Of a stretch of 20,376 bases of DNA, positions 7,309 to 8,251 are shown in pieces. The notes under the pieces were generated by a model. That model searched no databases. It worked only from the letters and a program-made list of their open reading frames with translations, and was not told where the DNA came from. Position numbers and translations under genes: made by a program. The stretch's first letter is position 1. Each line of letters starts with the position of its first letter. The stretch spans positions 1-20,376 of IMG/VR virus record IMGVR_UViG_648276651_000003; one strand, 5' to 3'. The DNA is from a virus. Its lineage: Duplodnaviria; Heunggongvirae; Uroviricota; Caudoviricetes.

Positions 7309-8251
7309 ATTAACAGGATACGTCTGGGACGCTTGCGCATCTTCGGGGATGAAACTATCCAGCGTGGCAATCATGGCGCGCCTGGCTGACTTCAGCAACG
7401 ATGAGGGTGTTTGCTGGCCTTCTATCGCGACCATATCCCGTCAGATTGGCGCTGGTGAAAGTACTGTCAGAACGGCGATAGCTGCACTTGAGAAAGAGGG
7501 GTGGCTCACTCGCACACAGCGCCGCAACGGCAACCGTAATGCATCGAACGTCTACCAGCTCAACGTTTCCAAACTACAGAAAGCGGCATTTTCTCACCTG
7601 TCAGCTTCTGACACATCAAAATCTGATGCGTCAAAATCTGATGCGTCAAAAATTGACCCCTCAAAATTTGATGCGTCGGAATCCATCAAAAAAACCGGTT
7701 TTGACCCGTCAGAATCTGGTGGGGATCCGTCAGTAAAATCAACTACTGATCCATCAGATATAAATCCTTCTTGTCCGGACGCTTCGCAACCGGACGAACA
7801 GGGCTCTGCTGATGAATTTCTGTCACGACATCCTGAGGCGGTGGTGTACAGCGCTGCAAAGCGGCAGTGGGGCAGCCAGGACGATTTAACCTGCGCCGAG
7901 TTCATTTGGGGAAAAATTATCAGCATGTACGAACTGGCGGCTGAAAGTGATGGTGAGGTAGTTCGCCCTAAAGAACCAAACTGGACCGCATGGGCGAATG
8001 AGGTTCGCCTGATGGTGATGCAGGACGGGAGAACCCATAAACAAATTTGCTCACTTTTCAAGCGCGCCAACAAAGATTCGTTCTGGTGTAAAAACGTGCT
8101 CAGCCCGTCGAAGCTTCGGGAAAAATGGGATGAGCTGTCGTTAAAACTATCTGCTCCACTCAATAGCTCCCGCCAGGGGTCGTCCATTTCGCGAGCCAGC
8201 TTCGACGGGGTTGATTACTCATTGCCAGAAAACTCGGGGTTCCGCACATGA
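7298..8251 (+). CDS. Replication initiator (lambda O-like: N-terminal HTH DNA-binding domain, iterons inside the gene)
   Basis: N-terminal HTH-like region (MARLADFSNDEGVCWPSIATISRQIGAGESTVRTAIAALEKEGWL); 15-bp tandem iterons within the gene; position after cro/CII-like as in lambda. Confidence 0.7.
   Translation: MSTKLTGYVWDACASSGMKLSSVAIMARLADFSNDEGVCWPSIATISRQIGAGESTVRTAIAALEKEGWLTRTQRRNGNRNASNVYQLNVSKLQKAAFSHLSASDTSKSDASKSDASKIDPSKFDASESIKKTGFDPSESGGDPSVKSTTDPSDINPSCPDASQPDEQGSADEFLSRHPEAVVYSAAKRQWGSQDDLTCAEFIWGKIISMYELAAESDGEVVRPKEPNWTAWANEVRLMVMQDGRTHKQICSLFKRANKDSFWCKNVLSPSKLREKWDELSLKLSAPLNSSRQGSSISRASFDGVDYSLPENSGFRT
7616..7690. repeat. Iterons: five tandem 15-bp repeats (tcaaaatctgatgcg family), candidate origin of replication
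   Basis: Units at 7616, 7631, 7646, 7661, 7676 (two identical, three variant); additional gacccgtcag/gatccgtcag pair at 7703-7733; in-frame, encoding SKSDA-like pentapeptide repeats. Confidence 0.6.

Follow-up and report, generated by a model that had tools for sequence, protein, structure and literature searches.

A candidate lambda-type replication origin in the linker of an O-like prophage initiator gene, with repeats conserved as DNA

Does the cluster of short repeats in the middle of an O-like initiator gene mark the replication origin of the prophage that carries it, or do the repeats matter only for the peptide that they encode? The gene lies in a lambdoid prophage of the Klebsiella/E. 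coli type, analysed here over 20,376 bases (the window, meaning the whole stretch of DNA under analysis). The nearest phage record over the initiator gene is 98.7% identical (Klebsiella phage 1 LV-2017 and others). The genes of the window are arranged as follows.

102-1244, minus strand: integrase, then excisionase
After the excisionase: a number of uncharacterised genes, followed by a ParB-like gene
5360-6055, minus strand: CI
6153-6395: Cro
6361-6891: CII-like gene
7129-7308, plus strand: small DUF4222 gene of 59 codons (Pfam DUF4222, E 3e-18)
7298-8251, plus strand: O-like initiator gene, 317 amino acids (phrog_391 and Pfam HTH_36)
8248-9057, plus strand: Dam-type adenine methylase gene (Pfam MethyltransfD12, E 5e-51)
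After the Dam methylase, in order: RusA, DUF968, Q, then lysis genes, HNH and terminase

The DUF4222 gene has a ribosome-binding site, GGAG, at 7120 and overlaps the initiator start by 11 nt, while the start of dam overlaps the initiator stop codon (ATGA). A DUF4222 gene is also found upstream of the initiator in L005-L007 (E. coli prophages) and in Elizabethkingia phage EKP1. It is thus a regular upstream companion of the initiator gene, and its product may be a small partner protein. The gene directly after the initiator is dam and not a P-type loader gene. Between int and Q, scans with Pfam, PHROG and lambda P (tblastn) detected no replication gene other than the initiator; the Pfam and PHROG scans gave no P-, DnaC-, DnaB- or primase-like gene in positions 1-11029 of the window (int to Q), and lambda P had no tblastn match to the window (best E 5.8). 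At 56-92, just past the end of the integrase gene, are three copies of CTTCCCCAAAACT with spacings of 11 and 13 bp, which are probably integrase arm-type or att-associated repeats.

That the gene encodes an O-type initiator, as first proposed, is borne out by a match of residues 1-295 to phrog_391, 'replication initiation O-like' (E 2.2e-115), and by its C-terminal domain. Two domains were delimited in the protein.

7298-7597, plus strand: N-terminal winged-helix domain, residues 1-100 (HTH_36, AlphaFold2 model, Foldseek)
7832-8206, plus strand: C-terminal domain homologous to that of lambda O (BLASTP, tblastn)

HTH_36 (PF13730) was detected by Pfam at residues 23-70 with an E of 7e-11 and 42.2 bits, against a cut-off of 25. 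In an AlphaFold2 model built on 45 homologues, the N-terminal domain is modelled as a winged helix in the order helix-helix-helix-helix-strand-strand (block-mean pLDDT 66-88) and residues 171-285 as a helical C-terminal domain (block-mean pLDDT 79-93). Residues 103-163, the stretch encoded by the repeats, have a pLDDT below 50 in the model, and this peptide is predicted to be disordered. The best Foldseek matches of the N-terminal domain are MarR/ArsR-type winged-helix proteins, which bind palindromic DNA as dimers, and a PDB sequence search yielded nothing beyond a weak match to a PaaX/MarR winged helix (E 0.015). In BLASTP, residues 179-303 align with residues 179-287 of lambda O at 37% identity over 125 columns (E 4e-25), and tblastn matched the O genes of lambda, 933W and others. 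Neither Pfam nor NCBIfam matched a family to this domain in the window protein; the homology to lambda O came to light only by tblastn and BLASTP. The N-terminal domain differs from that of lambda O: it is an HTH_36 domain, the Pfam scan of the window protein gave no Phage_rep_O (PF04492) match at E up to 0.01, and hhalign of the domain against lambda O residues 1-117 returned a probability of 0.1%.

The original prediction placed an array of iterons inside this gene at 7616-7735, made of five tandem 15-bp units, two identical and three variant, with a gacccgtcag/gatccgtcag pair nearby. The units are as described, with TCAAAATCTGATGCG at both 7616 and 7631, and the pair is present at 7703-7712 and 7724-7733. 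Repeats do occupy the predicted interval, but the cluster is wider, reaching from about 7598 (CACCTGTCAG) to 7756 (TGATCCATCA). Tandem Repeats Finder reported a period-15 array at 7607-7677 (4.7 copies, 78% matches, score 72) and also read the same array at period 30, and a repeat search returned copies at 15-bp steps starting at 7594, with one more at 7702. The sites are listed here from the promoter-proximal end.

7598-7607: degenerate leading site CACCTGTCAG (read from the sequence)
7609-7683: tandem array of five head-to-tail 15-bp units (repeat searches and core matches)
7609: unit 1, TGACACATCAAAATC
7624: unit 2, TGATGCGTCAAAATC
7639: unit 3, TGATGCGTCAAAAAT
7654: unit 4, TGACCCCTCAAAATT
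7669: unit 5, TGATGCGTCGGAATC
7679-7688: weak out-of-register site GAATCCATCA (read from the sequence; also grouped by the repeat search)
7691-7702: A/T-rich spacer with a perfect 12-bp palindrome, AAAACCGGTTTT, between the array and the conserved sites
7702-7711: conserved site 1, TGACCCGTCA, inside the block TTTGACCCGTCAGAATCTGG
7723-7732: conserved site 2, GGATCCGTCA, with GATC, 22 bp past site 1
7747-7756: conserved site 3, TGATCCATCA, with GATC, 23 bp past site 2
7730-7770: candidate unwinding region, promoter-distal to the sites, where the A+T content is the highest in the gene

The leading site CACCTGTCAG resembles CACCCGTCAG, a variant found at the 7702 position in relatives. Translated, the array and sites read DTSKS DASKS DASKI DPSKF DASES ... 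FDPSES GGDPSV ... DPSD, which contains the SKSDA-like pentapeptides that had been foreseen. Positions 7598-7756 correspond to residues 101-153 and thus fall between the N-terminal domain (1-100) and the C-terminal domain (from about 171), in the low-pLDDT linker, in keeping with the proposal that the repeats sit as they do in lambda O.

What the sites share is a short core, TGAY-NN-RTCA, with imperfect palindromic symmetry. There are five exact TGAYNNRTCA matches in the 20,376 bases against 1.14 expected, a count that none of 100 shuffles reached, and all five are within the 148 bp from 7609 to 7756. The 20-kb window has no other iteron-like cluster, the sole other repeat cluster being the three CTTCCCCAAAACT copies by int. 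The candidate unwinding region at 7730-7770, which overlaps site 3, is 30% G+C (70% A+T over 40 bp) and contains the lowest-GC 40-mers of the gene; it is within the bottom 2% of the window for G+C, a short and weak signal. The perfect palindrome AAAACCGGTTTT was considered as a functional element and rejected, since relatives keep the A-run and the T-run and not the palindrome.

We consider it likely that the cluster at about 7598-7770 is the replication origin of the prophage, placed inside the initiator gene as in lambda. What counts for this reading is that, in 20 kb, an array and palindromic cores are found only between an HTH_36 domain and a lambda-O-type domain. Counted against it are the modest A+T-rich tract, the 15-bp spacing of the array, which is out of phase with the DNA helix, the existence of a relative (P0009, described below) without the tandem array, and the result of the window scans, which gave no helicase-loader gene as a partner for the step after binding. 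The lack of DnaA boxes nearby also counts against it: TTATCCACA, with up to one mismatch, has 4 matches in the window against 3.9 expected, and none is near the gene.

The alternative that survives best accepts the repeats as selected DNA-binding sites and takes them for operators at which the initiator, or another regulator of phage or host origin, would control transcription of the rep-dam operon, e.g. by autoregulation or roadblocking, with the replication origin elsewhere. The N-terminal domain does resemble MarR/ArsR/GntR-type repressors, a weak sigma-70-like match overlies the array at 7608-7637, and the weakness of the A+T-rich tract also favours operators. However, a promoter and terminator scan of 6000-9200 gave counts no higher than in shuffled sequence (for promoter-like matches, 2 against 2.7 expected), and the 20-kb window offers no second iteron-like cluster. 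The protein has a lambda-O replication domain, and distant family members keep repeats at exactly the same position. This inter-domain position matches that of the experimentally defined lambda and Stx origins (PMC7466680). We regard operators as less likely than an origin, and as unlikely in themselves.

Could the repeats instead be a slippage-prone, low-complexity linker without a cis-acting role as DNA, similar to one another through recent duplication? Near-identical genes do differ in copy number by whole units of 15 bp, disorder is predicted for the linker peptide, and the two identical units fit a recent duplication. The question turns on whether the DNA or the peptide is conserved, and this was examined in 80 loci, taking one genome per species across Enterobacterales, together with phage and E. 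coli records. Repeats directly follow the N-terminal domain in every full-length relative. At residues identical to those of the window protein, codon identity is 0.80 in the linker, against 0.47 in the N-terminal and 0.50 in the C-terminal domain, so that, from genus to genus, synonymous positions vary much less in the linker than in the two folded domains. Amino-acid identity in the same 80 relatives is lower in the linker (0.66) than in the N-terminal domain (0.80). A repeat maintained at the protein level would be expected to conserve peptide over DNA, and the relatives show the opposite pattern. Codon choice is also specific to position: the serine of [D/E]-x-S is encoded by TCA in 461 of 537 cases (86%), against 16% TCA elsewhere in these genes, and the third base of the codon preceding [D/E]-x-S is T in 363 of 537, while the residue itself varies (S, F, I, T, V, P). 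The linkers contain 10.9 cores per kb and the remainder of the loci 0.07 per kb, and exact cores in 81 genes most often lie 15 bp apart.

The same motif is also used in both orientations, with different peptides as the result. In subgroup B, whose N-domain identity is 56-64%, TTGACCCCTCAA (IDPSN) alternates with its reverse complement TTGAGGGGTCAA (VEGST), and the units ATTGACCCCTCAAAT (IDPSN) and GTTGAGGGGTCAACC (VEGST) are one 12-mer in opposite orientations. Counted in the whole gene set, there are 86 copies of TGACCCNTCA (DPS) and 19 of its complement TGANGGGTCA (DGS/EGS). A second reading frame is seen in phiP27 (N-domain identity 45%), where a 22-bp block, CGGTTTTGACCCTTCAGAATCTGG, is kept after a 1-nt deletion that replaces GFDPSES by VLTLQNL, with the frame restored by a 22-nt insertion. 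P0005, a variant that shares more than 90% of its residues with the window protein, carries VLTRQNL in place of GFDPSES and probably reads the conserved block in another frame, like phiP27. The block TTTGACCCGTCAGAATCTGG was found in 58 of 81 unique genes. In a consensus built from 80 anchored genes, which range from Klebsiella to Edwardsiella, each base of GGGGATCCGTCAGTAAA other than G7722, C7731 and A7739 is shared by 90% or more, and the downstream block that contains it, TTT(G/C)ACCCG(T/C)CAGAATCTGGNGGGGATCCGTCAGTAAA, is at least 60% conserved at most positions. Slippage fails to explain why the non-tandem sites at 7702-7756 are kept in these 80 genes. Rfam and tRNA scans of the window found nothing, and hence gave no sign of a structured RNA that would account for the conservation. 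Taken together, codon identity, the TCA bias, the use of both orientations and the second reading frame point to selection on the DNA, and judged by these comparisons the repeats are under purifying selection as DNA and not as peptide. The freely varying low-complexity linker, which the original prediction had named as the outcome that would speak against it, is therefore rejected, and we give the slippage explanation as a whole very little credence.

Repeat number across relatives, a comparison that had been proposed together with the array, ranges from 0 to 10 tandem units among proteins more than 90% identical to that of the window, which has five. P0001 (337 aa) has ten units. At the other extreme, P0009 (286 aa, seen on 10 contigs) has none and keeps only the three downstream sites. 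The three sites spaced by 22-23 bp are thus the constant part of the cluster and the 15-bp array is its variable part. The tandem array may even be dispensable, given that P0009 is without all of it. In many relatives (e.g. L007 and L039) the N-terminal domain is 80-90% identical and is joined to an unrelated C-terminal domain, Phg_2220_C (PF09524); C-domain identity is 0.2-0.3 in many relatives with an N-domain identity of 0.8-0.9. The switch occurs directly after the conserved DNA block, such that the N-terminal domain and the repeats travel together, and the presumed origin coincides with the point of module exchange. This pattern is what could be cited for the idea that the block is a recombination boundary for swapping initiator halves, with no binding function, but we find that idea highly improbable: the prospect of later recombination exerts little selective pressure, and the idea accounts neither for the palindromic core and its recurrence, nor for spacings of 15 and 22-23 bp, nor for the fact that distant relatives have other repeats in this position. 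Exchange here more plausibly follows from the conservation of an origin.

With an origin as the preferred reading, we compared the cluster with known systems. The lambda and Stx-phage origins lie in the middle of O and consist of iterons plus an AT-rich tract, and Stx phages differ in having 4 or 6 iterons, with 13 additional residues in O (PMC7466680). As in lambda and the Stx phages 933W and P27, the sites of the window fall midway in the initiator gene and separate a DNA-binding N-terminal part from a C-terminal part. Like lambda and the Stx phages, the locus also has a series of dyad-symmetric repeats with A-runs, and a repeat number that varies among relatives and alters the length of the protein; the weakly A+T-richer tract on the distal side of the repeats may be a further likeness. 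The C-terminal domain is homologous as well, at the 37% identity given above, and in lambda O it is the C-terminal part, residues about 160-299, that contacts P. There are also differences. Lambda has four iterons of about 19 bp spaced by about two helical turns, whereas the window has a 10-12-bp palindromic core repeated every 15 bp head-to-tail, plus three sites 22-23 bp apart. The A+T-rich tract of lambda is much stronger than the 70% A+T over 40 bp seen here, and the window is without the P gene, or any other loader or helicase gene, of an O/P replicon. Since the N-terminal domain is not of the lambda O family and no P-like gene follows, the locus shares the layout of lambda but is not an O/P replicon of the lambda kind.

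Closer in the N-terminal domain are phiP27 L17, the RAH1 'O' protein, SI5 and Va_PF430-3_p42, which share the HTH_36 fold and have repeats directly after the winged helix. The repeats vary in sequence and in period (15, 22-24, 24 and 39 bp), and the C-terminal domains are different as well. Klebsiella phage RAH1 has four 22-nt dyad repeats 22-24 bp apart, followed by a P-like gene; Salmonella phage SI5 has two 19-nt repeats, followed by a primase/helicase gene; Vibrio phage Va_PF430-3_p42 has GGTCAAATTCCGACC twice; and phiP27 has 3.3 copies of TGAACCGTCAAAATC. Unlike the window, phiP27, RAH1 and SI5 each have a loader, helicase or primase gene downstream. In phiP27 (L091, NC_003356, 10334-11260) the HTH_36 initiator is followed by DnaC-like and DnaB-like genes. 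The O protein of a 'P27' has been described as nearly identical to lambda O (PMC7466680), and that phage and the phiP27 of NC_003356 may be different replicons. We also looked at the Rac prophage oriJ as a counterpart and rejected it: K-12 YdaU is a DUF1376 protein whose gene is followed by a DnaC-like gene, and so is of a different family.

The cluster also resembles the origins of iteron plasmids (RepA, pi, RepE; 19-22-bp iterons) in having a winged-helix initiator and repeats next to an A+T-rich region, and in that extra sites may titrate the initiator. Plasmid iterons, however, are helically phased and located outside the rep gene, and those origins use DnaA boxes, while the sites here are inside the initiator gene with no DnaA boxes nearby. 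RepA, pi and RepE belong to another protein family, and no iteron-plasmid Rep family was among the Pfam matches of the window protein.

The 954-bp initiator gene contains only two GATC sequences, at 7724-7727 and 7748-7751, and these are within conserved sites 2 and 3, the two most conserved of the iteron-like sites; the GATC at 7724-7727 is kept in nearly all relatives. The position of the GATCs in conserved sites, together with a dam gene of the prophage's own overlapping the initiator stop, suggests that methylation or SeqA may control the origin. A more ambitious reading would make this a distinct origin design, with a loader-free O-type initiator, a dense off-phase array of dimer sites every 15 bp in front of three helically phased sites, and methylation-gated firing. 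We think this doubtful; if it were true, gating might act through SeqA sequestration or through methylation-sensitive binding of the initiator.

How such an origin would work can be outlined from the arrangement of its parts. The N-terminal domain is the presumed reader of the iterons, and we infer that winged-helix dimers bind the TGAY-NN-RTCA palindromes. The sites at 7702, 7723 and 7747, 22-23 bp apart, and the A+T-rich stretch at 7730-7770 would form the core, where a nucleoprotein complex assembles and the DNA opens. The array at 7609-7683 would be an accessory loading platform that raises the local concentration of initiator, comparable with the additional iterons seen in Stx phages. In the next step the helicase machinery of the host would be brought in by the lambda-O-like C-terminal domain, in a prophage where the scans gave no P-, DnaC- or DnaB-like gene, and the peptide encoded by the sites would be a disordered tether that accepts whatever the DNA needs. 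A lambda-O-type C-terminal domain in a prophage without a loader gene raises the question of which partner it contacts.

The locus is best read, in our view, as a lambda-type origin in the initiator linker that differs from lambda in its DNA-binding domain, its repeats and its lack of a P-like loader gene. The original proposal of a candidate origin in the lambda arrangement is supported on the points that could be computed, with binding, unwinding and origin activity put forward here as inferences. The principle of an origin inside the initiator gene is textbook, and the finding, while sound, is fairly ordinary. In papers on SfII, SfIV, SfV, phiNP and related phages we found no description of an origin, of initiator binding or of origin activity, and the origin of this initiator-plus-repeat module appears not to have been described previously. 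The module itself is very common. It is present in the Shigella serotype-converting phages SfII and SfIV, Citrobacter phiNP, Yersinia YeP1-3 and Klebsiella prophages. At least a portion of the gene is matched in 1537 of 5426 complete E. coli genomes, most of these matches covering only the 3' part, and matches over at least 80% of the gene length were found in 152 of the 5426.

For this family, placing the origin would give a concrete target for studies of prophage replication and induction. The variable array would explain the 'helix-turn-helix' proteins of variable length that come out of annotation pipelines. The linker would also be a clean natural example of a constraint on DNA that overrides the peptide, with sites used in both orientations and in two reading frames.
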